A DNA stretch of 64,000 nt from contig OY730476.1 of NCBI GenBank assembly GCA_963422735.1, positions 2,784,001-2,848,000 on the forward strand. Direction: 5' to 3'. The notes beneath the pieces were generated by a model, which had not been told where the DNA came from, did no database searches, and saw only the letters and a list, made by a program, of their open reading frames with translations. Positions within the stretch are counted from its first letter, which is position 1. Every line of letters starts with the position of its first letter. Below, piece by piece: positions 31-34,739 of the stretch. A program made the position numbers and the translations under genes. This stretch comes from Candidatus Latescibacterota bacterium. GTDB lineage: Bacteria > Latescibacterota > UBA2968 > UBA8231.

Positions 31-276
31 TTGCCGCGGTACAAGCCCTGTCTGTGGTGCAACGACCCGATGTATTTGCACCGGGGTCATTCCCTGTGCC
101 GGGATAGCATGGGTTGCGCCTACGTCGAGGCCGCGCCGGCCTACGCCTCAGCCTTGACGCTGCGGTGGGACGTCGCCTCGCGCACCGCGAGCGGGGTCTG
201 CTACCGCGTCGAGGCGCACGAGCACCACCGACTGCGCAAATGGTACGATCAACAGCGGCTGCGAAGCAACGCATGA
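31..276 (+). CDS. Small hypothetical phage protein
   Basis: ORF ends in an ATGA overlap with the next gene; CxxC near the N-terminus. Confidence 0.4.
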   Translation: MPRYKPCLWCNDPMYLHRGHSLCRDSMGCAYVEAAPAYASALTLRWDVASRTASGVCYRVEAHEHHRLRKWYDQQRLRSNA

Positions 277-914
277 GGATTCTGTGCAATGGGGCGTATG
301 CCCCCATCATGGCGTTGGCTCGCCATTCCGACTATGCGTCTCGACTGGGATGGCTGAACACGCCGCGCACAAAACTTTGTTGGAGCCGGTTGTTGGCTTC
401 GTCTTTGCCCATCGCCGCCGATAACTCGGCCTATTCGGCATGGTGTCCGCGGCGGTTTAGGCATTTTGTCCGGTCGATTCCCGAAGGCCGGCTTTTGTGG
501 TTGGCCGTGCCCGATGTGGTCGGCTCATCTGCCGGCACACAGGCGCGGTTCGACTACTGGTATCCTCAACTGAGTCAGCACCCACTGGCCTACGTAGCAC
601 AAGACCACAGCGAAAGCGATGCCACCATCCCCTGGAATTTAATCGTCGCCCTCTTTATTGGGGGGAGTACGCAATGGAAGTGATCCCAAGCGGTGTACGA
701 TCTCATCCAAGAAGCCAAAAGGCGCGACAAGATCGTACACATGGGACGCGTTAACAGCCATCGGCGACTGACATGGGCTTATCGCTGTGGATGTGATTCC
801 GTCGATGGGACCGGGTTCTCTCAATTTTCTCGCAACCATCTCAAGGCCGGGGTCGAGCATCTACTCTCCTTAGAAAGGCAACAGTCCCTGTTCCCCCCTA
901 GGAGGAGAGCATGA
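273..914 (+). pseudogene. TGT/DpdA-like (base-exchange TIM-barrel) phage protein interrupted by in-frame TGA at 681-683
   Basis: Motifs ADNSAY, VPDVVG, FIGGSTQWK*SQ, VHMGRVN, DSVDGT. ORFs 273-683 and 693-914 are in the same frame, separated only by TGA plus 3 codons. Confidence 0.65.
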
Positions 915-1003
915 AGAAATTCAAAGAGGTGTTGTCGATTCTCTTTCTGCTGTACAGCCTAGTCGTCATCGCCCATCATCTGGCGCGTTTCCTGTCCCCG
1001 TGA
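911..1003 (+). CDS. 30-aa single-TM peptide (MKKFKEVLSILFLLYSLVVIAHHLARFLSP); copy at 29740-29832
   Basis: GGAGGAG RBS, ATGA overlap, hydrophobic stretch. Confidence 0.4.
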   Translation: MKKFKEVLSILFLLYSLVVIAHHLARFLSP

Positions 1004-1048
1004 GACGCTGCTAGATGATGGACAGGATGACTGTCTCCACTGGGGCTG

Positions 1049-2023
1049 CTACGCGCTCCGCAGGATGAGCCGCTTGGCGAAGCGGACGGTCTCGGCGATC
1101 CCTCCCTCTAGCGACACCTTGGGCTCGTAGCCCAAGAGCGTCCGGGCACAGGTCAGGTCGGGGCAGCGTCGCTTGGGAGCATCCTCGTGTGGGTTAGGTT
1201 CATGTTCGATCCTGCTCTTGGACTGGGTGATACGTAGGACGGACTCGGCCACATCGAGGATCGTATGTTCTGCATCGTTGCCGATGTTGATGGGCTTTAC
1301 TATGGGCGAGCGCAGTAGGGCGAGTATACCGGCCACTATGTCGGATACATAGCACGGGCTGCGCGTCTGCCGACCGTCTCCCTGCACGGTCAGGGGCCAA
1401 CCGTGCAGGGCCTGCTCAACGAAGGTGGGCATCATGCGGCCGTCGTCCGACTTCATGCGAGGCCCGTAGGCGTTGAAGATGCGGACGATGCGGGTGTCCA
1501 GCCCATGCTTGCGATGGTAGGTCATCGTCAGTGCTTCGGCATATCGCTTGGCCTCGGCATAGACGCCCCGGACGCTGGTATGATCGATGTTGCCAGTGTA
1601 GGTCTCTGGCTGAGGATGAACCAGCGGGTCGCCGTACACCTCGCTGGTAGAGGCCATCAGGAAGGTAGCCCCCTCGTACCGGGCTAGTTCGAGGGCCGCT
1701 TTGGTACCTTGGGCTCCAGCTTCCAGTATCTCCATCGCCATCGACTCTACGAGCGTCGGCGTGGAAGGGCTGGCCAGATGAAGCACATAGTCGATAGAGC
1801 CAGACCCAACCTCTTTCATTAGTCTCGCCAGCAGGTGTTCTCCCTTCGACACGTTGGTCTGCAAGAACCGGAACGACGGGTTGTCCCACAGCAAATGGGA
1901 CAGGTTGTCGCCAGTGGATGTCAGGAGGCTGTCGAGGGCTATCACCTCATGCCTCTCAGCTAAAAGGGCGTCGCATAGGTGCGACCCTAAGAACCCGGCA
2001 CCGCCGGTGATGATTGTCCTCAT
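1049..2023 (-). CDS. NAD-dependent epimerase/dehydratase, UDP-glucuronate decarboxylase (UXS)-like SDR
   Basis: TGGAGFLGSHL, HLASP, ASTSEVYGDP, YxxAKR, RIFNAYGPRM, QTRSxCYVSD. Confidence 0.9.
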   Translation of the reverse strand: MRTIITGGAGFLGSHLCDALLAERHEVIALDSLLTSTGDNLSHLLWDNPSFRFLQTNVSKGEHLLARLMKEVGSGSIDYVLHLASPSTPTLVESMAMEILEAGAQGTKAALELARYEGATFLMASTSEVYGDPLVHPQPETYTGNIDHTSVRGVYAEAKRYAEALTMTYHRKHGLDTRIVRIFNAYGPRMKSDDGRMMPTFVEQALHGWPLTVQGDGRQTRSPCYVSDIVAGILALLRSPIVKPINIGNDAEHTILDVAESVLRITQSKSRIEHEPNPHEDAPKRRCPDLTCARTLLGYEPKVSLEGGIAETVRFAKRLILRSA

Positions 2024-2033
2024 GTGTCCTGTG

Positions 2034-2372
2034 CTAGTATGTCCTCTTGTAATGGGCCAGCAGTCGCTCGCGCCGGGCCAGCAACTTCTCTAGGGCGTTC
2101 ACGGCCTCGATGTCGCCTTGGGCCACCTTGGGCTGTATACTAGTCAGGGCCTCGTTGATGCGGGCTAGGTCGATGGCCCGTTGCACTTTCTGTTCGTCGA
2201 ACCGCATACCTGCCTCGGCGATCAGTTCCTCGGCGACGACCTCGGCGTCGACTTTCAGCACCTTGACGGACGTGCGGATGCCCTGCCGCTTCATCGCCTC
2301 GGCGATCTGTCTCATGGAGTAGCCTCGTATGATACAATCCTTGACGTAGGCTTGTCGCTCCGCTGCTTTCAT
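2034..2372 (-). CDS. HTH protein, terminase-small-subunit-like
   Basis: GYSMRQIAEAM HTH; C-terminal GDIEAVNALEKLLARRERLL typical of TerS-like proteins; ATGA overlap with the upstream gene. Confidence 0.55.
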   Translation of the reverse strand: MKAAERQAYVKDCIIRGYSMRQIAEAMKRQGIRTSVKVLKVDAEVVAEELIAEAGMRFDEQKVQRAIDLARINEALTSIQPKVAQGDIEAVNALEKLLARRERLLAHYKRTY

Positions 2373-3163
2373 TGCAGTCGTGGGTTGATCCGGTTCACTG
2401 CTATGTTGCAGGAGCGACCCGTCAGTCCAATGGCATGAGCCGCAGCGGACCGCTTGAAGGACACGGCCCGGCCCCATTTGACCTTGAGCCGTTCTTCGCC
2501 CTGATGGTACTCGTCCCCCGACACCAGCCCGGTGTTGCCGCCCTTATTCCCTGAGTCCAATGCACACGTGAACAGGACGCGCTGGTCGTACAGCATAGCC
2601 CGATCCTCGCGCAGTATCTCCAAGAAATGATCTACGTCCTCGCGGCCTCCGTCCGGGTAGTGCTGTAAGACCTTGGCGTTGCCCCGTATTATTCGGAGCC
2701 CACCGCCCATGGTACCCACCGCCTTGAAGGGTTTTACGATATTGTCTGTCGAGCCGAAGATCCATGCGGTGGGCATGTCGCCGCAGCCCCCCCACGTCAG
2801 GTCGAGGTCTTGCAGGACCCGCACCATGTTCTCGATGTAGTTCAGGGTCTCTGTGGGGCTGGCACTCAGGCAATTGTTGCCGTCGGCCATGATCTCGACC
2901 CCCTGCAGGTCGTCATCGACAAAGGCCAGCGCGTCCTCGCTAAAATCCTCTTTCATCTTATTCATCACGCCGGCGTATCCATGGACGGGTACATGGGTGG
3001 CCAGTAGGTCGTCTGGCACCGCGGACGCATAGTCGTCGCGCTCGCGCTCATCCACATACCAAGTGGCCGTGGGCAGCAGCTCGCGTACGGATGGCACGTT
3101 CTCTGATCGCTTGCGCGACGGTATGATGAGGCGATAGTCCAGCGTCGGGTCCGGCGTCAGCAT
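2369..3163 (-). CDS. GT-A glycosyltransferase, GREB1-like / TET-associated (TAGT) family
   Basis: IIPSRKR, VDERERDDY, FVDDDL (DxD), REDVDHF, NKGGN, LKVKWG. Confidence 0.75.
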   Translation of the reverse strand: MLTPDPTLDYRLIIPSRKRSENVPSVRELLPTATWYVDERERDDYASAVPDDLLATHVPVHGYAGVMNKMKEDFSEDALAFVDDDLQGVEIMADGNNCLSASPTETLNYIENMVRVLQDLDLTWGGCGDMPTAWIFGSTDNIVKPFKAVGTMGGGLRIIRGNAKVLQHYPDGGREDVDHFLEILREDRAMLYDQRVLFTCALDSGNKGGNTGLVSGDEYHQGEERLKVKWGRAVSFKRSAAAHAIGLTGRSCNIAVNRINPRLQ

Positions 3164-3825
3164 AGCAGGTTCAGCAGCTCTTTTCCGTGGATCGCCCGCA
3201 TGACGGGCGTGTTGGGGCGATAGGTCGGTACACTCAGACCCACCGCCTCGCACAGGGCGCGGTACTCGCGCCGGTTGGCCGACTGAATGACCAGAAAGTC
3301 GTAGTGCTCCCCGGTCTTCAGCTCCAGATCTCTTTCTGCATCGGTCTTGCTGTGGAGTCCGCCATCCTCGCTCGCCGTTGGGGGTGCATGCTGCTTGATA
3401 TGCTCTTGGATATCTTCCAAGATCGGATTGCTTTGAATGCTTCGGCCAATGCGTTCAACTATGCGCTGAAGCTTGTCCTTGGAGAAGCGAGCTGTGTCAC
3501 GGGTAGCGTCCAGCGTGGCCAGCAGCAGGTCGGCCTCCGCCTCGTTCAGGTCGGTCGTCAGCACGGGCACGTCGGCCTCGGGGTCGAGGTTGGCCCGCAG
3601 GTGGCCGTCGAGGATGCGCCAGCCGTCGCCGTGCGGATAGACCAAGATCGCTTGGGCCCAGCCTATCTGCTCTATTAGTTGGCGCACCTGCTCGACCTGT
3701 CGGCCGGGATGGAGGCGTATGTTGTCCGGGTGGGGTGCCAAGCTCTTGGCCGGCACGGTCATCAGGCCCGTGATTCGATTGGGCCAATCTGCTGTAAAAT
3801 CGTCTGGGCTTCGATGAATCTCCAC
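3157..3825 (-). CDS. ParB/Srx N-terminal domain protein B
   Basis: LAPHPDNIRLH, ILDGHLR, EADLLLATLD. Confidence 0.8.
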   Translation of the reverse strand: MEIHRSPDDFTADWPNRITGLMTVPAKSLAPHPDNIRLHPGRQVEQVRQLIEQIGWAQAILVYPHGDGWRILDGHLRANLDPEADVPVLTTDLNEAEADLLLATLDATRDTARFSKDKLQRIVERIGRSIQSNPILEDIQEHIKQHAPPTASEDGGLHSKTDAERDLELKTGEHYDFLVIQSANRREYRALCEAVGLSVPTYRPNTPVMRAIHGKELLNLLC

Positions 3826-4403
3826 CTTTTATTTCCCTTTCGGTCGATGTTCAGTATCTCGGATAGCTTCGTCGTGGTGCTCACGTCGGAAACGAAGACG
3901 ATCACCACATCGTCGTAGATGCCCTCGTAGTCCGCAATGGTGTCGCGCTGGTTGCGTTCCTTGGCTGACTCTGAGATGGGCTTGGTTGGCACGGGCGGAG
4001 GCTCGGCCTTGCGTCCAATGTCTGCTATGAGCCGACGCAGGGAGGCGTTGGGTCCGTCCACCCTCGGCAACAGCCGCTGCCAGGCGTCCAAGTCGACGTC
4101 CACATGGAGGCCGCTGGCGTCCAGCGTGGCCAGCAGCAGGTCGGCCTCCGCCTCGTTCAGGTCGGTCGTCAGCACGGGCACGTCGGCCTCGGGGTCGAGG
4201 TTGGCCCGCAGGTGGCCGTCGAGGATGCGCCAGCCGTCGCCGTGCGGATAGACCAAGATCGGCTTGACCCAGCCCACCTCGTCCATCAGGCCGCGCACCT
4301 GCTCGACCTGATGGGGTGGATGGAGGCGTATGTTGTCCGGGTGGGGTGCCAAGCTCTTGGCCGGCACGGTCGTCAGGCCCGTGATTCGATTCTTGAGGTC
4401 CAC
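3762..4403 (-). CDS. ParB/Srx N-terminal domain protein A
   Basis: Same ParB domain; DNA 4117-4391 nearly identical to 3506-3780; different C-terminus. Confidence 0.8.
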   Translation of the reverse strand: MDLKNRITGLTTVPAKSLAPHPDNIRLHPPHQVEQVRGLMDEVGWVKPILVYPHGDGWRILDGHLRANLDPEADVPVLTTDLNEAEADLLLATLDASGLHVDVDLDAWQRLLPRVDGPNASLRRLIADIGRKAEPPPVPTKPISESAKERNQRDTIADYEGIYDDVVIVFVSDVSTTTKLSEILNIDRKGNKRWRFIEAQTILQQIGPIESRA

Positions 4404-5116
4404 TCTTGTCCCCAGGGCGTTGACGAGGAGGACAGCTTGAGCATCTGCACCGTGCTAGCCATCCCGATGTTGTATAGGGCGTCCAGTATGCCGAGTCCAG
4501 GGAGCCACTCCCACTGCTGCTGGTCGTAAGGCCATGAGGTGAACCGGGAGCACCTCAGGTCTAGGCCCGCTTGCTGAAACACGAATGGGTTGAGGTAGTC
4601 TTTGGCTCCCGACCCGCTCAGGTAGGTCGATCCGCCTACGGCTTGTACGGCATCCACCAGTCGCTCGTTGGGGCTGTCGCGGAGCGGTTCGCCTAAGTTC
4701 GAGGAACGCACGATCTCCAAGCTCAGGCCCATGCACTCAGCCATGTGGATAATCAGTCCCGTGTTCAGGTCGGCCAGCCGGGATCTCTTGAGGAGGCCGT
4801 AGGCCAACGGGCGGTAGAAGGGTGCTTTGCCATAGCAGGCTTGCAGGGTGCGCCGGTGCTTGTTGTCCCATCCATCCCGCACGATCTCCACATCGCGGAT
4901 CGCTTGGAGCCTGCGTCCGCGGGTGCGTACCGGCACGGTCAGCCATTGCGGTTCGCCATGCGTCCCCCGGATAAGTACGCGGTTGGTGTAGTTGTTCTTG
5001 CTGTACTGTATGTCGTCCAAAAGCACCAACACATCCGACTGAAAGACTTTTTGCCAGAAGCCGATCCACGGCAGGTACGTTGGCTCGTGACAGCAAACCA
5101 CTTTTTGCAGGCTCAT
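4373..5116 (-). CDS. WbqC-like family protein
   Basis: HEPTYLPWIGFWQK, DDIQY, NRxxI, WLTVPV, YGKAPF, YLSGSGAKDY, GILDALYN. Confidence 0.9.
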   Translation of the reverse strand: MSLQKVVCCHEPTYLPWIGFWQKVFQSDVLVLLDDIQYSKNNYTNRVLIRGTHGEPQWLTVPVRTRGRRLQAIRDVEIVRDGWDNKHRRTLQACYGKAPFYRPLAYGLLKRSRLADLNTGLIIHMAECMGLSLEIVRSSNLGEPLRDSPNERLVDAVQAVGGSTYLSGSGAKDYLNPFVFQQAGLDLRCSRFTSWPYDQQQWEWLPGLGILDALYNIGMASTVQMLKLSSSSTPWGQEWTSRIESRA

Positions 5117-5141
5117 GGGTACGAATTCGCCTAGTCTCTTA

Positions 5142-5169
5142 ACTCCCGATAATATCCCTTATAGGGAGT
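5142..5169. other. dif/Xer-like 11-6-11 inverted-repeat recombination site ACTCCCGATAA-TATCCC-TTATAGGGAGT
   Basis: 11-bp arms (1 mismatch) with ATAA/TTAT inner ends and a 6-bp spacer. A perfect arm ACTCCCTATAA at 33360-33370 marks the element/host junction. Confidence 0.6.
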
Positions 5170-5175
5170 GCCAGC

Positions 5176-6312
5176 TCATCGGTATAGTCCGGTGATGGCA
5201 TCCACCACGCGGGACACATCATCATCGCTCATACCCGGGTGAATGGGCAGGTTGACCAGCATGCGGTAGACTTTTCGTGCATTGTGAAAATCGAAGGCAG
5301 CAGGACCCAATAGGCGGCGGTAGTAGGGTTGCATGTTTAGCGGCTTCCACAAGACGCCAGCCCCGATATGAAGGGTTTTCAGTCTATTCAGCACATCAGC
5401 GCGGGTGACGTCCGAGCGAGGGTTGATCCTGAGCGGATAGAGATGCCACGCATGGCGTCTGTGGTCTACCATTTCCGGTATGTACAGGTCGTGGATGTCC
5501 CTGAACGCACTGTTGTAGCACTGGGCTATGTGCGTCCTGTGCTCGATGGAGGCGTCCAGCCGACGGAGTTGGTGAATACCCAGCGCGGCCTGCAGGTCTG
5601 TCATGTTGTACTTGTAGCCCAGTTCCTCCACGTCGTAATCCCAGTTATGCTCGCGGGACCATGTCCTGCCGTGCATAGACAGCCTGCGCACCCGATCAAT
5701 TTTCTCCTTGTCCCCTGATGCTATCATGCCGCCGTCCCCCGTCGTCATGGACTTGGTGGCATAGAAGCTGAAGCATGTGAAGTCGCTGCCTAGGCCTCCT
5801 ACCCTCCTCCCTTCATACTCGGCCCCGACCGCATGGGCGGCGTCCTCAATGACCGCTAGCTGGTGTTTGTCGGCCATCTTGAGGATGGCGTCCATGCTGC
5901 ACACTTGGCCCCCGTAATGCATGACGATGATCGCCTTGGTTCGGTAGCTGATCTGCTGCTCAATATGCCTTGCGCTGATGTTCAAGGTGTGGAAGTTGCA
6001 GTCGACGAAGACGGGCGTGGCTCCGACATAGCGCACGGCGTGAGCCGTGGCGGCAAAGGTCAGGACCGGCACGATCACCTCGTCGCCGGGGCCGACCCCC
6101 GAGGCCAGCAGGGACAGGTGCAGGGCGGCTGTCCCTGAGCTGACGCCGACGATGTAGTCGGCTTGACAGTAGGCTGCAAACGCCTGCTCGAACTGCTCCG
6201 TCTTCGGACCTCTGGTGATCCAGCCCGACTCCAGCACGTCGATCAACTCTTGCTTTTCCTCGGGGCCGAAGGATGGAGGGGCGAAAGGAATGGGTCGGGT
6301 GCTGTGCTGCAT
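5176..6312 (-). CDS. DegT/DnrJ/EryC1/StrS PLP aminotransferase
   Basis: SSGTAALHL, GPGDEVI, EDAAHA, FSFYATKSMTTGDGGM, GYKYNMTD. Confidence 0.95.
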   Translation of the reverse strand: MQHSTRPIPFAPPSFGPEEKQELIDVLESGWITRGPKTEQFEQAFAAYCQADYIVGVSSGTAALHLSLLASGVGPGDEVIVPVLTFAATAHAVRYVGATPVFVDCNFHTLNISARHIEQQISYRTKAIIVMHYGGQVCSMDAILKMADKHQLAVIEDAAHAVGAEYEGRRVGGLGSDFTCFSFYATKSMTTGDGGMIASGDKEKIDRVRRLSMHGRTWSREHNWDYDVEELGYKYNMTDLQAALGIHQLRRLDASIEHRTHIAQCYNSAFRDIHDLYIPEMVDHRRHAWHLYPLRINPRSDVTRADVLNRLKTLHIGAGVLWKPLNMQPYYRRLLGPAAFDFHNARKVYRMLVNLPIHPGMSDDDVSRVVDAITGLYR

Positions 6313-6348
6313 GGATGTAAGGTAGGCCGCTTCGCTTGTACCGTCAAT

Positions 6349-13495: not shown

Positions 13496-14662
<1,167 letters not shown>

Positions 14663-17600: not shown

Positions 17601-19624
17601 GTCGCCTCGTCGGTCCACGGCGAGACCCCCCTTTCTTTATCTGCTAATCGAGCTTGCCAGTACACGTCCACCAGCGGCTCGACAGCCAGCCGACCTTCTC
17701 CTGTTGTTCCCAAATCGTGTTGCGTTGATGGGTACGTGCCCGAGACGGTGGTCCAGCGTAGCTGTAGCGTGGTGCCGACCACCGTCTCCCAGGAGACATG
17801 GAGTATTGAGAACGGCTCGCCGTTGAGAAGTTGGTCTTCGCGCTTGACCGTTATGTCCTCGGCGTCTATGGCGACGGCAGCCGATTCGGTCTTCACGGGC
17901 TTTTGGCCGTACTCCGTGAATGCGCTTGCCTCGGCTACATCATGGTCCGAGGCCGCCAGTGCCTCGCGCAGGTACAGACGGATAGGCCCCTTGGTGTGCT
18001 CGATGCCCTCTAGGATGAAGGTCTTGTCCGTCCACCCCATGTCCGAAGCAGTCAGCTTTACTGGATGCCCGGGCACCAGCGCGGCAGTAGCAGGGGTGTA
18101 TGGCAGCAGGACCTTGCAGGTCAGGCGCTGGGCCAGTGCCTTAGCCTCGACATGCGTCCAGTGCTGTGCTTGGTAGTAGTCTGTCATCAGGGTGCTGGGA
18201 CGCAACTGCTCGATGCGCTCGATACCGTCTATAAATTTGAGCTCGTTGTTGACGACCACCGGCAGCTCGGCCTTGTTGTCCTCGGCTTGAGCGCAGGCCT
18301 CCAGCGATAGGCGCACCGTGTTGAACCGCTTGCCGGCTGGCACGGTCTCGACCTCTTCGATGTGCAAGCCATCGTCGTAGCCGTAGGACACCGCTGGGCG
18401 GTCCAGTAAGGTCGAGCCGGGGCGCAGGTAGACCTTGTCGCCTGACAGCGCGATATAGCCATGCCAGAGATATTCGATGGACCGGAGCAGGTGCAAGGGG
18501 TCGTCGCTGCTCCGCACGACGCCGCTCCAAGCATACGGCTGGATCGTTATGGTTTGGGTTTGACTTCGGCTACGGTGAGACCGAGGGCGCGAGCGACTAG
18601 GTAGGGTAATCGTTCTCGGCGTCCTGTCGCCGATAGAGATTTCTTTTGTTGCGGCGCACGCAGTCCGCGCACTGGCCAAGTCTGTCTCGTCAATGGCGTT
18701 AGCCGGAAAACCCAGTCGCTCGGTCAGCAGCCATACGGCGATGTCCGCCGAGTTCGTACTGCCCGGTATTCCATTTACGGCAATGCCGTCCACCTCAAAA
18801 GACAAAGACGGTACGCTGGTCGGATACGGCTTGTGAACCGTGTTGTACGTGTTCGATTCGTTGAAGTTTTCGTATGATGTCCGCTTTCTAAGTTTTTTGG
18901 GTTGTTCGTAATTGATTGAATTATCCCTCCCCAAACCACTTGCGGATATATCGATGGCGATGTGTGCCCAAGAGACGCCTTTGAGTTGGTGGCTCTTGGT
19001 CCACTCTTGTTCGCCTTCTTCCAGCTCGGTCATCTGGAAAATGCCTTGCCCTCGCCCTCTTTTAGTACGATCGGACTCGGACATGGGCACATGGCGCGTT
19101 AGTTGCTGGAGGTCGTAGCCCTCGGCACCGTCGGCTTTAAAGTTTAGGTAGGCGCGAATACCTCCAGCCCACGGCGAGTTGCCGTCTTTGTTGCTTACCG
19201 GTTCCCACCAGCCTTTTGATTGGTATTCGAGCTTGACGCGTTCGCCATCGACCCATATGTAGGTGTTGCCTTTGGGGTCTGGTGTCTTGAGCGATTCCTC
19301 ACTCAAGACGATGGCCAAGTCGACGCGATTCTTCCGCCTCGTAGCTTGAAAAGCGTAGACGATCTGGCCGCCCACTCTCACCCCCTTACCTATCACCCAT
19401 TGCCTTTCAACTGAGGCGGCCATCTCGGCCTGAACCGGGACGGGCCGCCCTTGCGTAGTAGCCCTCTTCGGCGGCGTAGAGAGTGCGCTGAGGACACCCA
19501 AACCGAAGGTCATGAGGGCTCCAGCCGGCGTTACCGCCCCAGCCGCGTAGGCCGCACCTAACAGGCCCCCCTGCAGGCCCAGCCCGCGAGCTTCGTCTCC
19601 GGTGATGTTGTCTAAGGGTACCAT
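14663..19624 (-). CDS. Tail tip / central fibre protein (lambda J-like N-terminus) with fibronectin-III and Ig-like domains
   Basis: VIGKGVRVGGQIVY, HQLKGVSW, PSLSFEVDG; FnIII GLEPNTAYVVQLR; Ig-like GSLPAGLTLS..GxITGTP; internal duplication 14964-15249 / 16437-16722. Confidence 0.8.
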   Translation of the reverse strand: MVPLDNITGDEARGLGLQGGLLGAAYAAGAVTPAGALMTFGLGVLSALSTPPKRATTQGRPVPVQAEMAASVERQWVIGKGVRVGGQIVYAFQATRRKNRVDLAIVLSEESLKTPDPKGNTYIWVDGERVKLEYQSKGWWEPVSNKDGNSPWAGGIRAYLNFKADGAEGYDLQQLTRHVPMSESDRTKRGRGQGIFQMTELEEGEQEWTKSHQLKGVSWAHIAIDISASGLGRDNSINYEQPKKLRKRTSYENFNESNTYNTVHKPYPTSVPSLSFEVDGIAVNGIPGSTNSADIAVWLLTERLGFPANAIDETDLASARTACAATKEISIGDRTPRTITLPSRSRPRSHRSRSQTQTITIQPYAWSGVVRSSDDPLHLLRSIEYLWHGYIALSGDKVYLRPGSTLLDRPAVSYGYDDGLHIEEVETVPAGKRFNTVRLSLEACAQAEDNKAELPVVVNNELKFIDGIERIEQLRPSTLMTDYYQAQHWTHVEAKALAQRLTCKVLLPYTPATAALVPGHPVKLTASDMGWTDKTFILEGIEHTKGPIRLYLREALAASDHDVAEASAFTEYGQKPVKTESAAVAIDAEDITVKREDQLLNGEPFSILHVSWETVVGTTLQLRWTTVSGTYPSTQHDLGTTGEGRLAVEPLVDVYWQARLADKERGVSPWTDEATAAVSTKDTAAPAAPAGVSVSELAGGYRLTWTDPTEDDYDHTLITDAVDGSTATPYKTSANEIVILPADGISETPAMRTYAIKHVDTTGNESKAATGTIYPLPTTVVQYAYQIGTDTLPTVPEAVQSMPHLDPNYTPTGWARSLPAPTRDHPIIWRIERKLTGTSPQTYTLWTASTPVQVERDGLTLVAGDPSSLPAPADPQSSEIVLTATHNTISVAITGLMGGHYAEVEWGYPESGNYTRHGIASGIYSTYVIRGLDGGKTYPIKVRYRNFFGTASGDLVLSKATEPTPAPAAPGLPTATEFPALDAADCTDTTIAVRFTLPSTYGLTAQVEWGTAASGGGFDRRVGIAAGLGDGPYIIRGLEPNTAYVVQLRYRVQGSPLSDARSRSAKTKPTPATIRFDVSTEHLPRLVVGQPIDTSNPLQLPTVAALDDVKAYSILYGSLPAGLTLSKTTAGCITGTPTRVGDYSLVWQAIDGAQSAEMDRTLTVHPAPVVQRPQRAYWTGPSDPYPTIADQTDGEKTNEHFRPTLDGRPAHVQPPAATAQQPAVWLLLRTWSPDAALATNWYPAQIVDRYQAPVPAPPAPEGVRVPRNERTPTSATIHWTSSGDFFTELEWEYLEGAQWHPAGNAVSYGQEYIISNLQPGVEYRVTVRHRNPAGVAGDYYLRDTDRYIRFTPSPAPATPPPLVFGTRHIPSLTQGETVDTTTPFQLPLVKGDQDDITYGILYGSLPAGLALSETTTGRITGTPIKEGLFRITWRASKGDQSIEEDFAIYVASPPPAKATAPGLPTATEFPAIDAADCTDTTIAVRFTLPSTYGLTAQVEWGTAASGGGFDRRVGIAAGLGDGPYIIRGLEPNTAYVVQLRYRVQSSPLSDARSRSATTQAAPVSPVPDAPAAVRVVAAGDTSLRVIFDPSSIYRTRIQWGLATSPFVPMSEAFLPKDTHGTYIIWGLQPETEYQVRVAYVNDDDVAGPYYGKA

Positions 19625-19627
19625 GCT

Positions 19628-20131
19628 CTATTTAGGGGGATAATATATTCCCATACCTTTATATCCACCTGTTGCTAGTTGCGCCGCATACTGCCAGCCC
19701 ATGTCCTCATGGTGTCGCTTGAGCTGAGCCTGGTGGTCCCAGCGTTCTGCCGACGTGTTTTCATGGAGCCACCAGATCAAATGCTTGAGCTCGCCAACCG
19801 TAACCCCATTCTGCTGCACGAGGCGCGAGACCATGCCGGCGTATAACCATCGTCGGTTCCAGCCGTTCCCAGTGTCTTCCAGCATCTGTATGCGCCCTAT
19901 GGCAGCACCCGGATTTTGCGATCGGGGCACAGCTATCTCGAATGGGATGGCCGTCGGGATGCGAAGACCCGAGTTCAGTCGCATCTTGCCGATCATTATG
20001 AGCTTCTTGGCTGTGTAGGTGAAGCCACCGTAGATCAGGTCGTGCTCGCCGGTCCACGCTCGCCAGACGCCGGCCTGACCGGATACGATAGAGCGGGATG
20101 CGCTGCCTAGCTCAATGGTGTATGCCTGCAT
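19628..20131 (-). CDS. Minor tail protein
   Basis: Position in tail operon; WTGEHDLIYGG and RWDHQAQLKRHHEDMGW typical of siphovirus tail-tip genes. Confidence 0.6.
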   Translation of the reverse strand: MQAYTIELGSASRSIVSGQAGVWRAWTGEHDLIYGGFTYTAKKLIMIGKMRLNSGLRIPTAIPFEIAVPRSQNPGAAIGRIQMLEDTGNGWNRRWLYAGMVSRLVQQNGVTVGELKHLIWWLHENTSAERWDHQAQLKRHHEDMGWQYAAQLATGGYKGMGIYYPPK

Positions 20132-20166
20132 CTAAGATTTGTTCGACGATAAAGTTTTATCACACA

Positions 20167-20760
20167 TCAAACCACTTCTTCGATCACCAGCGTCCAAGGA
20201 CCCATGTAGTCTGGCAGATAGACATTTTCGATGGGACGGATTACTCGGGCACGTATCTTGGTCGCTGGGGACAGCGCATCTTCCGCACCCAGTCTTAGAT
20301 TGGGCACGATGGTGATCTGGTCGGATGAGTTGCCCTCGACCACTTTGACCACGGACACCAGCCGGTTTGCTATGTTGGCATAGTGCCCCGCTTTGGCGTT
20401 GTGTTTTTTTAGAACGCCGGACAGCGTGAGCATTCCGTCTGTCGTAGTTGCTTTGCTGGTGTACGTCCCGCTCCATGATGGGCTATCGGGCTCGAAGGTT
20501 GGGAGTGGCAGGTTGATGTCGGCATGGTTGCTCTGACCTTGCAACGCATGAAGCCAAGCGGCGATGGCCCTCGCTCTGTCTCCGTTTTTCTGTATCGGAA
20601 TACGTATCCCGCCTTCAAACCGGTAGTACTGGTTGCCGCGCTCGTAGGTGTATCGCTGTCCTGTCACGGGGCTTACGTAGGCCGACTGGCCCGGTGTGGC
20701 TAGTCGCAGGTTGTAACGGTCTGGCGTCGCGCTCAGTGTGATAGTGGTTAGCTTTGCCAT
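20167..20760 (-). CDS. Distal tail (Dit-like) protein
   Basis: Immediately after tape measure; SPVTG motif; C-terminal LVIEEV. Confidence 0.55.
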   Translation of the reverse strand: MAKLTTITLSATPDRYNLRLATPGQSAYVSPVTGQRYTYERGNQYYRFEGGIRIPIQKNGDRARAIAAWLHALQGQSNHADINLPLPTFEPDSPSWSGTYTSKATTTDGMLTLSGVLKKHNAKAGHYANIANRLVSVVKVVEGNSSDQITIVPNLRLGAEDALSPATKIRARVIRPIENVYLPDYMGPWTLVIEEVV

Positions 20761-20762
20761 GG

Positions 20763-23572
20763 TTATGCGTATTCGCGTTGGGACGATGACGAATGATATA
20801 TTGGTGCTGATAAGTTGAGGCCCTCGGCTGCTTCCTGCACTCCTCCCCCGAAGTCTAGCTTCCCAGTGTCGATGAAGTCATATACTTGACCCAATAGGTT
20901 GTCAGTCACGCGGCGCATCGCTAGCTGAGATAGGCTTCTGGCCAAGTCCTGGACGACCTCGGACAGGCTACTGAAGCCTTGGGTGGCCTTCAGTAGAGTG
21001 TCGGCCAAGATGTCGGCGGTGCCCTTGAGCGTGTCGCGCCATTCCTGCGTCCGCTCGTCGGTCAGACGTATGCCGTCGGCCACTCCGCGCAGCTCTGCTA
21101 GTCGGGCCTGTATTATGTTCGTCTGATCTTGTTCTGGTTGGGAGAGGTCTCGTCCTTTTGCCTGACCCATTATTTCATGCAGTTCGGCTTGCAGATCGTT
21201 GATCTGCTCGTTAACCTCGGAAGCTTGGAGCCGTAGTTGCGCTGTTACGGGCACTTCGAGCGGTACGGCTTCGACTGGCATTGCGTCCAACCAATCATCT
21301 CTATCTAATAATTCCACGGCGTCTTGTATCAGTTTGTCCCGTTGCTGCTTCAGCTCTGGGGATAGCCCTTGTATTTCGCCTGTTTGAGCCTGTTCATTTC
21401 GCAGATTTGCGATATCGTCCTGAACATGACGTAGACGATCTAGCAAGGCTTGCACCTGATTTTCATCTTCAGTTGCCCCTTCAAAAGCTGTTGTGTCCGT
21501 CACCCCTGCGGCGGATAGCGTTTCTATCAGTTCGTCCTTGTTCGCTTGTATGGTTTCGGCTTGCTGTTGTAGGATATCTTGTAGTTGTCCGATCTGCACT
21601 GCGAAGTTTGTCAAGGGAGACACCCCCGACAGGTCGGCCAGTCCCAGCCTGTTGGTAGCCCGATCGACATCCTGCTGACGGCTAATATCGCTGAGCAGAT
21701 CGGCAGCGGACATCGCAGATTCTTTCGCTACTTTAGTCCTATTCGTCCACTCTTCCGTATCAAATTCCAGCACCGCCGCGGCGTCTTGTATCAGCTTGTG
21801 CAGTTGCTTCTTCTGCTCTGCGCTTGGCGCGGTTTCCTTATAGTCCCCTCTCAAATTTTTGAGATAGTCCCTCAACGGAGAAAGGCGACCTAGCAAGGCT
21901 TGTAACTGACCTTGCTCTTCAGCTACAGCCTGTTCAAAAGCGGTTGTATCCACCTTGGATTCGACTAGCTTTCCTCTCAGTTCGTCGCTGACCCTTTTCT
22001 GGTCGTCTAAGCGCTGTTGTATGACCTGTCGTAGGCTCTCGGCCTGTAGTGCGTAGTCTGTCTTCGAGGGTACCCCCGGCGGCTTGTACAGTCCCAGATC
22101 GCTGATAGCCTGATCGGTGGACTCGCGAAGCGAATATTGCTGAGTAGTTCAGTAGCGGGAACTGGGCCTGGTTGGGCGACCCTCTCGTTCAGTTCCCGCG
22201 CAAGCTCAGGGCTTATTACGACCGCTCTCTGAAAATTCAGTGCTCTACTCGGAGATACTTGTGCTTTCTCGCCACCTTTAAGGTCTGCTGCATTTATCCC
22301 TTGGGTTTTTATCCATTCTTCTAATTGCTCTTGGGTGTTGTTGGCCCGCATTGTGTATTCTGGCTTGGGGAACAAAGGCGGTTGTCCTGTCGGCCCGTGC
22401 GGTTGTCCTGTCGGCTCGTCCTCGCTCATAAGGAGGTCTTTAAGCCAAGCCGCTCCGGCGAAACCGCCAGCACCCTGTAACGCCTTACGACCAAATTTTC
22501 CTAATTCTCCTATGTTCCCGCTTTTACTAGATACTTTTGACGCTTTGTATGCATTGTAGGCCCATTTGCCAACACGAATGACCCTTCCAATACCGTGGTA
22601 GCTAGCCACGGCTAACAGTATGACGGCTAACAGTATGTCGGTTACAAAGTCTACCACTTGACGGCCTCGTTCCTCAGCCTCTCTTGGCGTACCTCCAAGT
22701 CCTGCGGGCGTCAGTTGCCCCAGCTTGCCAATGATCTCGACCACTCGGTCGAGGGCCCCCTTAAAGCCTGCCTCCAGTATAGGGGCCGCCTCGCGCAGCT
22801 TCGTCAGCATGTTCGATATGGGATCTTCTAGGTCGCCAAAGACGCGGAGCATGGACGTTTTGAACTCCATGGCGGTGGCGTGATATTCGCCTCGGACGCG
22901 TGCCAAGCCCTCTATCTGCTCGGCTTTCGCCTTCCGCTCGTCCGCCCTAAAAGCAGCCAGTCGTTGCTCGAAATCTGGTCGCGTGGCCGCAGCCAGAAGA
23001 GCTTTGGCGTCTTCCTCGCCGAAGATGGGGCGAGCGATGGCCTCGCGGCGACCCACATCCTCCATGGCGGCCAGCCGTTGCAGCATCTCGTCAAGCAGGT
23101 CTGTGGTGGGCCGTATCTTGCCTTGGGCGTCTTCGAGTTGTAGCCCGATCTCGCGGAAGAACTGGCCGCGCTCGGCGTCCGGCTCGACCCATGCCTCTCC
23201 TACGGACTCCACAAACGTCAGGATGGCTTCGGATACGTTATCGAGGTCGGCAGCGAAGACTTTGGCGTAGGCCTGCACATCATTGAGGGAGATGCGGCCT
23301 CGCACACTGAGAAGCTGTAGCTCCTCCCCGAGCATGGCCGCTTCGCGGGCGGCGGCCCCCAGCGAGAAGACCGCGGCACCAGCCGCCACCGAGCTCCACT
23401 GCTTCAGCGACTGGATGCCCTGCCGCACCCGGTCGTTGTACTGCTGTATGGCCCGCTGGTTGCGGCGCAGTTGTCGTCGCTGTTTCTCCAGCTCTGCGGC
23501 GGTGCGGCGCGACCCCTGTACGAACTGGGCGTAGCGAGCCTTTATGTTGGCAACCACTTCTGGGACAGCCAC
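20763..23572 (-). pseudogene. Tape measure protein, split by a frameshift near 22140
   Basis: Helical Ala/Gln/Glu-rich ORFs 22007-23572 and 20763-21953; the second frame stays open upstream to ~22148 (QQYSLRESTDQ...KVDTT). Confidence 0.75.
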
Positions 23573-23574
23573 GC

Positions 23575-23814
23575 TTAGCCTTGTTCCTTTCGATACGACC
23601 CGTAGAGGGCCGCTAGGTTACGCAGCCCTTCTATGCGCTTCTCTGGGTCGTTTTCCTCGTCGTCTTCGGGTTCTGATGTCTTAAGGAAAGCAGCCGCTAC
23701 CAGTGGGAAGGATGGGTAGCGAGCCAGATGACGCAGCCAGCCCTGGTACTCAACGTTGGGGAGCGCGTTGACTTGGGCTAGCGTGAGACCGAGGGCGCGA
23801 GCGACTAGGTAGGG
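23575..23814 (-). CDS. Tail assembly chaperone gpT-like extension (-1 frame of the upstream gene)
   Basis: PYLVARALGLTLAQVNALPNVEYQGWLR...; no own start; ends 2 nt before the tape measure start. Confidence 0.7.
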   Translation of the reverse strand, partial: PYLVARALGLTLAQVNALPNVEYQGWLRHLARYPSFPLVAAAFLKTSEPEDDEENDPEKRIEGLRNLAALYGSYRKEQG

Positions 23815-24167
23815 TCGTCGTTCTCGTCGTCCTCCTTCTGGTTACTCCGCTTGGGGCCGAAGCAGACCTCGCTGCACTTTTTAACCAGCGGGCCGTCCGC
23901 CCCACCCGTGCGCTGTATCAAGGCCCACGCCTGCTCGTCGCTCAGCTCGACCGCCGCCGCGACCCGAACGGTCTCGACGATGATGCCGTTTGTTCGGGCA
24001 CCAGCCTCTGGTGCTTCGCTGTCCAGTGCTTCCCACTGGCTCAGGATGCGGTCCGCTTCGGACTTGGACGGGTAGCGCAAGGGGATGGGTACGCCCTCGG
24101 CGGTCTCGTAGGGCGGCGGCTGCGACTCGATCAGGGCGATCAATTCTTGAGTAGGTGTTTCTTTCAT
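23805..24167 (-). CDS. Tail assembly chaperone gpG-like
   Basis: Between tail tube and tape measure; AAGGAG RBS; acidic end ...DDENDDPT. Confidence 0.7.
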   Translation of the reverse strand: MKETPTQELIALIESQPPPYETAEGVPIPLRYPSKSEADRILSQWEALDSEAPEAGARTNGIIVETVRVAAAVELSDEQAWALIQRTGGADGPLVKKCSEVCFGPKRSNQKEDDENDDPT

Positions 24168-24175
24168 GGGACTCC

Positions 24176-24826
24176 TTATCCGCCAATGACGGGCAGTGCG
24201 ACGTGCGTTATGGGTTGGATGCCGATCGTGATGGAAGTACTGTCTTCGCTGAACGACGGCACGATAGGCCCCGTGATGACCGCATTGAAGGACCACGTCA
24301 TGGACGGCACCAGGACCTTGTAGTTGCTTGTGGCGCTGACGTCGCTTGCTGGTTTCTCGACCTTTATCGTCTTCCCGTCCACCTCGATGATAGGGTGGTA
24401 CTTAGACTTCGCCTTGATGACGGCTCCGACGAATGCTTCTCCGTGGTCGCCATTGGGGCCTGATGAGTCCGCGAAGGTACACTCCCCACTGCTCGAGATG
24501 GCGATCGTTGCCCCTTGGGTGCTTAGTGCCGAGAAGAGCTCGACGGCCTTCGTAACGATCTTGATGCTTTTTAACTTGCCGTCGATCCAGCTATCATACA
24601 TCTCGCTCCACACATCCAGCGCGAAGGACGGGTTGAAATCCGCACTATAGCTGGGAATGTCGCCGGACGTTGTTATGACCTGCACCCCGTCGAAGTCGCG
24701 GATATTGCTGACGTTGCGCTCGCCGCCGGACGACGTCAGAGACCGTAGGCCGGGCACACGTACCCCCCCTACTTTGAAGTCCATGTGCGCGGTCGGGATG
24801 GTGGCTGGGGACAGTTTCTTGGCCAT
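24176..24826 (-). CDS. Major tail (tube) protein
   Basis: Position, size and beta-rich composition (GLRSLTSSGGER..., TWSFNAVIT). Confidence 0.65.
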   Translation of the reverse strand: MAKKLSPATIPTAHMDFKVGGVRVPGLRSLTSSGGERNVSNIRDFDGVQVITTSGDIPSYSADFNPSFALDVWSEMYDSWIDGKLKSIKIVTKAVELFSALSTQGATIAISSSGECTFADSSGPNGDHGEAFVGAVIKAKSKYHPIIEVDGKTIKVEKPASDVSATSNYKVLVPSMTWSFNAVITGPIVPSFSEDSTSITIGIQPITHVALPVIGG

Positions 24827-24836
24827 TGTTTTTTCT

Positions 24837-25316
24837 CTATCCGATAAGGCTGCGCGTGGCAGCCGAGTTCGTGCGACCGAGGTCGTCTATCGCCTTGGCC
24901 ATGCTACGACATAGGGCGTCTTCGATGGCTTCGACCGTCACATTCGATTGCAAAGCCTTCTCGACAAAGCGATTGGCGCGGATGCGCCCAGTGCGGCCTC
25001 CGCTTTTCTTGCGCCGCCGCGGCACCGTGCCCAGCGTCTGAAGGTGCGTGTGCGGGGCACCGACCAGCAGGCCGATGCGTCGCTCGCCAGCCACCTGCAC
25101 CCGCTGGCTCCGGCCCGTCTTGTCTGCCTTGCCACGCAGCCGCCGACGAAGCAGGCCGGTGCGCACGGGTGCGCCGTGCCGCGCTTCCTTAGCGGCAGCA
25201 CGAGCCACCCGCACACCCGCTTGGCCGTATGCGTGATCCGCAAAGCGCGGGGTGTCCAGCTCGTTCAGCAGACCGATCAGTTCCTCTAGGCCTAGCAGTT
25301 CGAGGTCAAGTTCCAT
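24837..25316 (-). CDS. HK97 gp10-like tail component
   Basis: LLGLEEL, APVRTGLLRR, HLQTLGT, RIRANRFVEKA. Confidence 0.75.
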   Translation of the reverse strand: MELDLELLGLEELIGLLNELDTPRFADHAYGQAGVRVARAAAKEARHGAPVRTGLLRRRLRGKADKTGRSQRVQVAGERRIGLLVGAPHTHLQTLGTVPRRRKKSGGRTGRIRANRFVEKALQSNVTVEAIEDALCRSMAKAIDDLGRTNSAATRSLIG

Positions 25317-25429
25317 CGTGTCGCCTGTGATTGGGGAGTACTAGGAATAATCAGGAAAACTGTCTTTTTTGGCAAGGTGTCCCAAGTCGTCAGCAGCTTA
25401 GCTGAGGACCGCCAATCTTTTTGTCTCGG

Positions 25430-25490
25430 TGATAAAATTCTATCATTTTATACTGGATGATACGGAGGTGCTTCGTAGGTTGTAGGTATG
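25430..25490 (+). promoter_or_regulatory. Repeated promoter, copy 3 (degenerate)
   Basis: gataaaattctatcattttatact...gcttcgTAGGTTgtaggtATG aligns with copies 1 and 2. Confidence 0.45.
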
Positions 25491-25631
25491 GAAACCAACG
25501 GCGGCAAATGGATCAGGCCAGACAAGCGGTTGGCCAGTGTCCCCCGACCCGTGGCGCGACGAGGCCCGACAGGCCGACACGGAGGCCGCCAATCCTCCAT
25601 CCCTTTTTCCACCCCAGAAGGAGTCAGATCC

Positions 25632-26276
25632 ATGAAAACTTGCTTGGTCGTTGGGGCGCACCCCGACGACATGGAGCTCGGATGCTGCGCCACCGTCCTC
25701 AACTTGATCGAGCGGGAGTGGGATGTGTGGTCGTTGGCCTTGGCGGACAACACGTTGACAGTCGTCGGTCAGGGCTTCGATGACTGTCATTTTCAGGCGG
25801 AGCGGCAGGAGGCCGCTCAGGTGCTGGGCATCCCGCAGGATCGCTTGCTGACGCACCGCTTCCCGGTGCGCGACTTCCCAGCACACCGGCAGGATATTCT
25901 GGAGCACCTATACAAGATGGTGCGCGACATGGAGCCAGAGATGGTTTTGTGTCCCTCGTCCACCGACATCAATCAGGATCACTTGGTCGTCTATGAGGAG
26001 ACCGTCCGGGCCTGCACGGGCATACCCTGCTCGATATTTGGGTACTACCTGCCGTGGAACAACCGGCAGGTTGGCCTCACCTTCTTCTCCTCTTTCACCG
26101 AGAAGTACATGTCCTTGAAGGAGGAGGCGCTGGCTTGCTATCGCTCCCAGGCCCACCGGCCATACATGCGGCCCGGGGCCGCCCGGGCTTTTGCGCAAAC
26201 GATGGGCACGTGCAGCTATGTCCTCCCGTTGGCCGAGCCGTTGGAGCCCATCCGGTGCATGTTGAGTGCATCATAG
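25632..26276 (+). CDS. PIG-L / LmbE family deacetylase
   Basis: GAHPDDMELG, RQDIL, DINQDH, K..AL.CYRSQ. Confidence 0.9.
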   Translation: MKTCLVVGAHPDDMELGCCATVLNLIEREWDVWSLALADNTLTVVGQGFDDCHFQAERQEAAQVLGIPQDRLLTHRFPVRDFPAHRQDILEHLYKMVRDMEPEMVLCPSSTDINQDHLVVYEETVRACTGIPCSIFGYYLPWNNRQVGLTFFSSFTEKYMSLKEEALACYRSQAHRPYMRPGAARAFAQTMGTCSYVLPLAEPLEPIRCMLSAS

Positions 26277-26360
26277 GGATCGCCTTGAACGCGTCGCCCG
26301 GAGGTACGCCAGCAACCGCGATGCCGCCGCGGCCTTGGGCATTCATCCGAGCAGCCGATG
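26266..26360 (+). pseudogene. Remnant of a small HTH protein
   Basis: RDRLERVARRYASNRDAAAALGIHPSS resembles the first half of an HTH and then degenerates. Confidence 0.3.
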
Positions 26361-26416
26361 CCTAGTTTCAGGCTTGCCCTTGCCAAGAGGGTGCTATCAT
26401 TGTTACATTATTAAGC

Positions 26417-27043: not shown

Positions 27044-27264
27044 AGAAGCAGACGACGCTTGCGGACGCCATGCAGCGGGCCACGAGCGAGCCGAAGACGA
27101 CGTCAAGGGTCGCCCCGTCCCGGCGCGGTAAGAAGGCCGTGGTCCTATACGTCGAACCGGAGCTGGCGAAGCGGCTAAAGGTGCTCGCAGCCGAGAACGA
27201 GACGACCATCCATGCTCTCGGCTTGAAAGCCCTTGACCTCTTGTTTGAGCAACTGGAGGTATGA
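27040..27264 (+). CDS. Ribbon-helix-helix partition partner (ParG-like)
   Basis: PSRRGKKAVVLYV...KRLKVLAAE...ALDLLF; ATGA overlap with parA. Confidence 0.75.
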   Translation: MKKQTTLADAMQRATSEPKTTSRVAPSRRGKKAVVLYVEPELAKRLKVLAAENETTIHALGLKALDLLFEQLEV

Positions 27265-27357
27265 TAAAAGATGCATCATAATGTGCATGGTATCATATAG
27301 CCAAAAGGAGTCTCTCCGTAAGATGTGTTTTGCTCCGAAAACTATCGGACTCGACCC

Positions 27358-30852: not shown

Positions 30853-30862
30853 GTGTCCTGTG

Positions 30863-33334: not shown

Positions 33335-33417
33335 GGGTACGAATTCGCCTAGTCTCTTAACTCCCTATAACGGGCATTGATACCTCCTTAATCGTTTGAT
33401 CTACTTACATTTAGAGC

Positions 33418-34698: not shown

Positions 34699-34739
34699 CG
34701 TCCAATCTCCTAAGTTCACGGGTTTGCAACTTGACTTCC

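Follow-up and report, generated by a model that had tools for sequence, protein, structure and literature searches.

Among the described systems closest to the locus studied here are the phage gene clusters that pair a 5mYOX (TET/JBP) enzyme with a glycosyltransferase (GT), in which a GT-A enzyme with an R...DDD...ED motif has ParB, terminase and NAD-dependent epimerase/dehydratase genes as neighbours and nucleotide-sugar pools are the source of the sugar (Burke 2021, PMC8256090; Pyle 2023, 10.1101/2023.12.21.572611). In the ParB-dependent phage T-dioxygenases (O'Toole 2026, PMC13229309) the gene of a short ParB-like protein, which has an N-terminal domain of the NTP-binding type, a conserved C-terminal domain and no helix-turn-helix (HTH), adjoins the gene of the DNA-modifying enzyme that it serves, a precedent for ParB as activator of a DNA base-modifying enzyme on double-stranded DNA. 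The beta-glucosyl-HMC-alpha-glucosyltransferase of phages T2/T6 (TAGT family; PMC13390438) modifies a group that the DNA carries beforehand, and in phage DNA arabinosylation (PMC13326640) the phage makes its own donor for the DNA glycosyltransferase. Here we analyzed 64,000 nucleotides of the complete 4.95-Mb chromosome of a Candidatus Latescibacterota bacterium (bases 2784001-2848000, hereafter the window), at whose left end a prophage operon combines a GT and ParB-like proteins with genes for amino-sugar metabolism. We conclude that this locus is a real, recurrent phage module, most simply read as a ParB-assisted GT with amino-sugar tailoring that probably acts on DNA.

The operon lies on the minus strand and belongs to a prophage made of two tandem elements, A and B, each of which holds a copy. 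In the direction of transcription, copy A encodes an ArnB-like DegT aminotransferase (5176-6354; PF01041, E 6e-127; found in this copy only), a WbqC-family protein (4373-5116; PF08889, E 1.6e-53, 182.2 bits vs cut-off 21.3), the ParB-like proteins 2 (3762-4403, a tandem paralogue whose C-terminal domain has diverged) and 1 (3157-3762, directly upstream of the GT), both recognized through PHROGs, the TAGT/JGT-like GT-A glycosyltransferase (2369-3163; assigned from phrog_842, E 1.6e-9, its homologues and its fold), a 112-aa HTH-like protein (2034-2372) and a UXS-like short-chain dehydrogenase/reductase (SDR) (1049-2023; Epimerase PF01370, E 6e-46). The genes from WbqC to SDR are packed and translationally coupled: WbqC and ParB2 overlap, the junctions read TGATG (ParB2/ParB1), ATGCTGA (ParB1/GT) and ATGA (GT/HTH), and 10 nt separate HTH from SDR; DegT lies 59 nt upstream of WbqC. 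Copy B, also on the minus strand, consists of WbqC (32591-33334), a single chimeric ParB-like gene (31986-32621), the GT (31198-31992), the HTH-like gene (30863-31201) and the SDR (29878-30852), and all open reading frames of the block are open in both copies. A PIG-L/LmbE-family de-N-acetylase gene stands on the plus strand of element B (25488-26276; PF02585, E 8.8e-15, 55.8 bits vs cut-off 28.2), and there is another copy at L001:15312-16037, upstream of the window. All eight genes of the preliminary description lie at the positions it had given and belong to the families it had named. The label TerS-like, which that description gave to the HTH-like protein, is a weak one, resting on position and size. 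We found no Pfam match for this protein and only chance-level matches in a PDB sequence search, and BLASTP did not match it to the HTH/Sf6-terminase-like gene of the viral locus L091; phrog_645 (E 1.2e-6) is its sole match, and the large terminase (TerL) gene lies ~7 kb off across an inverted block.

The core of the operon recurs in other phages. The set of 20 GT-seeded loci that we compared comprises 19 IMG/VR loci, found with an alignment of closer GT homologues, and one prophage of the same phylum (L029); it includes near-duplicates (L015=L016, L023=L024=L025, L009~L010). A word-indexed homologue search gave just two GT and five ParB relatives, and one weak GT locus (L006) was left out. In 19 of the 20 loci the GT is immediately preceded by a ParB-like homologue, and the 20th begins at the GT. 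A ~200-aa MgsA_C-like protein (phrog_16866) is encoded near the GT in 16 of the 20. Of the 15 loci scanned with Pfam, 9 have a large terminase gene downstream, and so has L029, which reads ParB-GT-MazG-PIG-L-TerL-portal. Element A retains the GT ... TerL layout of these relatives. This indicates that a ParB-like gene and a GT gene, often with an MgsA_C-like gene, beside terminase genes form a recurrent phage module. Other modification-type genes were seen near relatives of the module: Mom-family and MT-A70 genes in L007 (L007:8603-9157 and L007:4607-5287), Amidoligase_2 in L015, L018 and L023, and GGACT also in L023.

The GT belongs with the TAGT/JGT-like DNA glycosyltransferases. An exhaustive HMMER search gave 265 representative clusters of GT homologues at E <= 0.001, mostly of ~250 aa, and the Pfam family TAGT (PF20691) was matched by 70 of 80 aligned homologues (best E 5.5e-14); a PDB sequence search with the GT gave chance-level matches only. 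An AlphaFold model made with the homologue alignment has a GT-A fold and a mean pLDDT of 90.8 (the single-sequence model, with a pLDDT of 30, was unusable). Its best viral structural matches in BFVD are TAGT-domain proteins and beta-glucosyl-HMC-alpha-glucosyltransferase (TM 0.65-0.81), including the member of Klebsiella phage PKO111, and phrog_842, the best PHROG family, is again that of the T2/T6 enzyme. The conserved residues R19, D83-D85 and E175-D176, with D178 conserved too, fit the R...DDD...EDY/F pattern of phage DNA GT-A enzymes and trypanosome JGT (bioRxiv 10.1101/2023.12.21.572611), a comparison by pattern. Solved GT2-type or generic GT-A structures in the PDB match only loosely (TM 0.37-0.56); since the TM values are low for these and high for viral TAGT-domain proteins, the GT does not group with ordinary O-antigen GT2s, and the TAGT-like assignment of the preliminary description stands.

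The ParB-like proteins (~200-220 aa) have an N-domain of the ParB/Srx type and a C-terminal block, which form the two conserved blocks of the alignment, and have no HTH, as in the partners of the T-dioxygenases. They are identified through PHROGs only (phrog_620, E 2e-8), the query having no ParB_N Pfam match; ParB_N is matched by the homologues in two of the viral loci described below (L076 and L091). The ParB gene pair of copy A is a tandem duplication (3506-3780 vs 4117-4391, 93% over 276 bp). The single gene of copy B is chimeric, ParB2-like at its N-terminus and ParB1-like in the remainder, as if two ParB genes of the copy A type had recombined. A predicted complex of ParB1 and GT has a median ipSAE of 0.58 over 3 runs, against 0.00 for the best of 3 controls, with a partner pLDDT of at least 75 and contacts that agree by at least 50% between runs. 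Among solved complexes 116 of 157 reach this mark, and among mismatches 2 of 215; marks at 0.60 or under came from just 18 of those 157 solved complexes and from both passing mismatches. The prediction gives weak support to a ParB-GT complex, for which the strict adjacency of the two genes makes the prior favourable. Unlike in the T-dioxygenase systems, the neighbour is here a glycosyltransferase, no cognate 5mYOX stands beside ParB, and activation of the GT by ParB is a proposal.

WbqC and PIG-L join this core in part of the phages. With a WbqC alignment we found 71 viral WbqC loci (a single WbqC sequence alone matched none in viral contigs), in which HMM or phmmer searches detected DegT in 38, PIG-L in 30, SDR in 23, ParB-like in 8, GT in 7 and MgsA_C-like genes in 6. 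All seven GT-bearing loci also carry a ParB-like gene, and they represent five lineages by GT identity. Five of the seven were scanned with Pfam; their G+C content ranges from 27 to 51%. L076 and L091 share the order PIG-L-WbqC-ParB-GT-MgsA_C-HTH, L075 (27% G+C) reads ParB-PIG-L-WbqC-GT, L087 holds ParB, WbqC-PIG-L-WbqC, MgsA_C, an epimerase and GT, and L082 has GNAT and ParB-GT-MgsA_C, then WbqC ~2.6 kb downstream of the GT. In all four of these five loci that bear PIG-L it stands directly beside WbqC. A similar company is kept on chromosomes of the phylum, where DegT lies within 1.5 kb of 21 and PIG-L of 22 out of 30 WbqC genes (both near 16, neither near 3). The proposal that PIG-L belongs with WbqC and the GT is thus upheld by other viral loci, the L029 prophage and chromosomes. 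Of the TAGT, WbqC, DegT and DpdA-like genes whose co-occurrence the preliminary description had suggested searching for, GT and WbqC occur together in the seven loci above, and no DpdA-like gene was found in the 20 GT-seeded loci or in five whole phage records. Searches with WbqC gave only chance-level matches among PDB sequences and no Atlas links outside the WbqC family.

The remaining two enzymes of the operon recall the Arn pathway for 4-amino-4-deoxy-L-arabinose (L-Ara4N), which likewise combines an SDR of the UDP-glucuronate decarboxylase type with an ArnB-like aminotransferase and uses a GT-A transferase followed by a de-N-acylase that acts after transfer. The best solved relative of the SDR is human UXS1, a UDP-glucuronate decarboxylase (E 2e-71; next family 7e-31), and that of DegT is ArnB (E 7e-78), in keeping with the UXS/ArnB logic proposed for the pair. 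The two systems differ in that UXS1 is a closer relative of the SDR than is ArnA, whose models the SDR matches far under cut-off (1e-15 to 7e-16), and that DegT remains below all NCBIfam equivalog cut-offs (ArnB 320 bits, cut-off 631; PseC 359.5, cut-off 423.5); no formyltransferase is present with SDR and DegT, and no lipid carrier is involved. These sequence relationships suggest that SDR and DegT lead through a UDP-4-keto-pentose to a UDP-4-amino-pentose. As in DNA arabinosylation, the phage would make its own donor; the sugar, the enzymes and the acceptor, there 5-hydroxycytosine made at the nucleotide level, are different.

In the synthesis of mycothiol, bacillithiol and GPI, a GT acts first, then a PIG-L-type deacetylase, and then the amine is substituted. 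Modelled on this three-step order, the ParB-like partner would bring the GT to double-stranded phage DNA, or activate it there, at about the time of replication or packaging, and the GT would transfer an N-acetyl or amino sugar (as in GlcNAc transfer). PIG-L would then strip the N-acetyl group, and WbqC would modify the freed amine by N-substitution. The element's own donor branch would convert UDP-glucuronate to UDP-4-keto-pentose with the UXS-like SDR and this to an Ara4N-like UDP-4-amino-pentose with the ArnB-like DegT. The DNA would thereby receive bulky cationic sugars, a barrier to host nucleases. What we observed are the identities of the genes, their packing in the operon, the duplication, the recurrence of the module and the absence of a recognizable TET/JBP or ThyA; what we infer in this scheme is that the acceptor is DNA, which sugar is attached, in which order the steps run and what WbqC and ParB do. 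We give about an even chance to its central claim, that the GT acts on DNA with the help of ParB and transfers an amino sugar that PIG-L and WbqC then tailor. More tentative, and in our view unlikely, is the wider claim that PIG-L-WbqC-ParB-GT-MgsA_C is a conserved phage system by which DNA that has not first been hydroxymethylated acquires an amino sugar, de-N-acetylated and N-substituted, with ParB as GT loader, to which this element adds its own synthesis of a 4-amino-pentose donor. If true, it would mean a new acceptor chemistry.

Several observations weigh against DNA as the target of this tailored GT. The scans made found no maker of 5-hydroxymethylcytosine (5hmC) or 5-hydroxymethyluracil (5hmU), whether a 5mYOX or a ThyA homologue, co-occurring with the module. 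Tet_JBP (PF12851) has no match in the whole genome, so that the absence of TET/JBP noted in the preliminary description extends to the DNA upstream, and none in five related phage records, of which two have terminal repeats, or among the 131 + 57 neighbour proteins scanned; these negatives are limited, the positive controls having stayed under the cut-off, and section 12 of PMC13229309 describes divergent phage 5mYOXs that Pfam misses. ThyA (PF00303) was found in none of the five whole phage records. The locus differs in this from the 5mYOX-GT clusters, no 5mYOX and no ThyS having been found here, and from the T-even GT, which needs glucosyl-5hmC made before replication, nothing comparable having been found. 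The GT itself has no Pfam TAGT match at E 0.01, and the prophage is defective. The tailoring genes are also loosely attached to the core: PIG-L lies 4-5 kb from the operon here, 64 of the 71 viral WbqC loci have no GT, and SDR, DegT and WbqC are absent from all 20 GT-seeded loci, in which PIG-L occurs once. Because they are missing there, we regard the tailoring genes as an optional layer on the ParB-GT core. A search judged by titles and abstracts found no literature on the biochemistry of WbqC.

The lack of a recognizable source of hydroxymethyl pyrimidines would be explained if the GT, PIG-L and WbqC glycosylated a target other than DNA, either a phage or packaging protein, in an O-GlcNAc-like manner, or a small molecule, with ParB as partner or substrate. 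The succession of GT, PIG-L and a third enzyme is the logic of small-molecule thiol synthesis, and orphan phage GT-A contigs are common. GREB1, a eukaryotic relative of TAGT, glycosylates a protein (PMC7968844), which both favours such a target and counts against DNA. The strict pairing of the GT with a ParB-like gene (19 of 20 loci) speaks for DNA, however, as do the closest structural relatives of the GT, which are DNA-acting enzymes or TAGT proteins, and the T-dioxygenase precedent, in which ParB-like proteins activate DNA base-modifying enzymes on double-stranded DNA (PMC13229309). We consider a non-DNA target unlikely. A compact, 231-aa C5-cytosine methylase is encoded in element A upstream of the window (L001:18314-19009) and seems by eye to have kept motifs I, IV, VI and X; it places a 5-methylcytosine writer, without a TET, beside a TAGT-like GT.

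A different answer on the acceptor had been offered in the preliminary description, namely that a DpdA-like transglycosylase exchanges a DNA base for a modified one, which the GT then glycosylates. The gene concerned (273-914) lies on the plus strand, opposite to the operon, in a variable cargo stretch, and is probably outside the glycosylation module. It belongs to a family (phrog_15826) of more than 1000 proteins, ~205 aa long and mostly viral, whose DpdA-like label comes from the annotation by others of its homologues in actinophage records ('DpdA-like tRNA-guanine transglycosylase'). Codon 137 is an in-frame TGA (682-684), a position through which 42 of 42 aligned homologues read, with Leu as the consensus, and the TGA is unchanged in contigs from the runs X1 and X4, which belong to different studies; judged by its reading frame, the gene is a nonsense pseudogene. 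A role of TGA as sense codon was rejected, EF-P, MutS and the genes of the block all ending in TGA. The gene is single-copy in the genome, and beside copy B just its last ~95 bp remain. The family is absent from all 20 GT-seeded loci and from five of five whole phage records, and tblastn with the GT found no match in 50,697 phage records, including 27 with the DpdA-like family. In neither of the two phages that we looked at is the DpdA-like gene accompanied by que genes or GTs. Nor did the searches tie the family to transglycosylases: none of 43 members matches PF01702 at E 1, the PDB sequence search remained at chance level, and hhalign aligned the family with the host Tgt at a non-significant probability of 1.2%, laying HMGRVN...DSVDG on MGVG...VDMFD in the catalytic-motif region. 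That overlay can be counted in favour of the proposal together with the annotation of the actinophage homologues, with the presence of QueC and Tgt in the host and with the nearest Pfam-named Atlas cluster, DUF6610 (on 20% of one cluster; the structural neighbours share no Pfam family), which is the family of DpdA4 according to PMC10516641. The host's 7-deazaguanine synthesis genes stand outside the element, QueC only at 1.82 and 2.94 Mb and Tgt at 4.25 Mb. A base installed by DpdA is the least likely answer on the acceptor, and we judge it very improbable. The preliminary description is thereby retained for the GT type, the SDR and DegT logic, the absence of TET/JBP and the link to PIG-L, and is not supported for the DpdA-installed base.

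The loose attachment of the sugar genes bears on a further explanation, in which SDR, DegT, WbqC and PIG-L are lysogenic-conversion cargo that alters a host surface glycan and have no connection with ParB-GT. It accords with their distribution, since SDR, DegT and WbqC are missing from the GT-seeded loci and chromosomes of the phylum often carry a WbqC-PIG-L-DegT cluster, WbqC being present in 88 of 168 genomes. The only WbqC genes of this genome are the two prophage copies, while a chromosomal one is present in 28 of the 30 other genomes of the genus. Yet the sugar genes flank ParB-GT-HTH on both sides and are translationally coupled to them, WbqC and PIG-L lie beside or between ParB and GT in L075, L076, L087 and L091, and the operon holds no flippase, polymerase or membrane GT; we find the cargo explanation quite improbable.

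The phage-derived stretch covers the left 33.4 kb of the window and ~22 kb upstream of it (L001, L002), and contains tape-measure, neck and tail-fibre-like genes, ParA, DNA methylases and a large terminase. It ends just past WbqC of copy B, the right border being set by a host gene (33418-34719, 433 aa) that is matched in each of the 31 genomes of the genus. Scans of the window and the upstream DNA found no portal, capsid or integrase genes in the phage stretch. The prophage is a tandem, partly duplicated one, decayed or defective, in which no portal or capsid gene was found. The SDR-HTH-GT-ParB-WbqC block occurs at 819-5152 (A) and 29648-33370 (B) with 97-99% identity, in two parts (819..3780 and 29648..32609, 99.4%; 4117..5152 and 32335..33370, 97.0%). 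The duplication extends to tail genes (A -15740..-9120, negative numbers lying upstream of the window; B 18895..25536; 97%) and to PIG-L and ParA (A -4702..-2921; B 25537..27319; 99%). With the GT read forward, element A runs GT, HTH, SDR, an inverted block and TerL (L001:12045-13889), the inverted block comprising the DpdA-like pseudogene, the compact C5-methylase, an SspD/PAPS-reductase-like gene, ParA, PIG-L and an MgsA_C-like gene (L001:14791-15396). TerL and the MgsA_C-like gene are left over in element A only; copy B, which lacks these and DegT and has a single ParB gene, is otherwise intact.

Such decay could mean that the region is a relic, inactive now, whose genes are intact through recent duplication only. 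The missing portal and capsid genes, the restriction of TerL to element A, the broken DpdA-like gene and the losses beside copy B agree with this, as does the comparison of the WbqC copies, which differ by 7 non-synonymous vs 4 synonymous codons. The differences between the SDR copies point the other way (10 nt, in 8 synonymous and 2 non-synonymous codons), the open reading frames of the block are all open in both copies, and the sequence is identical in runs of 8 studies. The GT copies differ by 3 nt (2 synonymous codons and 1 non-synonymous codon, hence 1 aa) and the HTH-like genes are identical. A relic seems to us distinctly unlikely. With the head genes absent from the prophage, and TerL and the MgsA_C-like gene in element A alone, the module is probably idle at present.

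The two elements carry further genes and repeats. In element B a candidate defence pair (27325-29134) of HEC-01A (E 6.5e-137) and HEC-01B (E 8.6e-71), with AAA_21 and DUF4276, fills the slot that in element A is taken by the SspD-like gene (L001:17078-17947, upstream of the window; PADLOC SspD, E 1e-15), the C5-methylase and the DpdA-like gene. The gene at 10132-10752 encodes a phage protein with an N-terminal part of unknown type and a C-terminal Rieske [2Fe-2S] domain (PF00355, E 1.8e-8), the sole redox-type domain in the element. A collagen-repeat, tail-fibre-like gene (13496-14590) contains ~156-bp tandem repeats (13758-14306), and a 1653-aa FN3/He_PIG protein (14663-19624) an internal 286-bp repeat (14964-15249 = 16437-16722). 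The 240-bp intergenic repeat at 6349-6588 and 11774-11998 (91% identity) is probably one of the repeated promoters of the preliminary description. A third related fragment (L003, genome 3419429-3423799) is 94% identical to positions 1-215 of the window; after the matching part it has a 3.5-kb insert with a helicase and two unknown proteins, and an integrase gene lies at L003:14423-15634. Beyond the prophage, a host island occupies 34740-44776; its two PhyH dioxygenases, M19 dipeptidase, second DegT (462 aa), MFS protein, epimerase and nucleoside transporter give it the look of a small cluster for a sugar or nucleoside metabolite. The 433-aa protein of 33418-34719 was rejected as a missing member of the pathway, being a host gene, and the PhyH gene at 34740-35552, which lies beyond it, was dropped. 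Housekeeping genes follow from ~45000 on (EF-P, AccB/C, GcvH, ScpA/B, Cmk, S1, MutS, LptD).

The tailoring genes set the locus apart from the published clusters. PIG-L, WbqC and the DegT aminotransferase go unmentioned in the main texts of PMC8256090, 10.1101/2023.12.21.572611 and PMC13229309, and the words 'deacetylase' and 'aminotransferase' do not occur in the main texts of the latter two. In the literature searched we found no description of PIG-L, WbqC or DegT beside phage TAGT-like GTs; Iyer et al. 2013 (NAR 41:7635) and the preprint supplements, which lie outside that search, may bear on the point. Judged mostly by titles and abstracts, there was likewise no description of a phage system of PIG-L/LmbE, ParB and GT.

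About two thirds of phage GT contigs hold no known base-priming enzyme. Among these unexplained phage GTs, the present locus and those related to it mark out a subset that recurs and can be tested, in which a ParB-like protein and a TAGT-like GT are often joined by MgsA_C-like, PIG-L and WbqC proteins. If the module acts on DNA, amino sugars would join the known DNA decorations, the modification-type ParB proteins would gain a second client after the T-dioxygenases, and the WbqC family would obtain its first functional context. DNA modifications of this type bear on the evasion of restriction and CRISPR and on sequencing.

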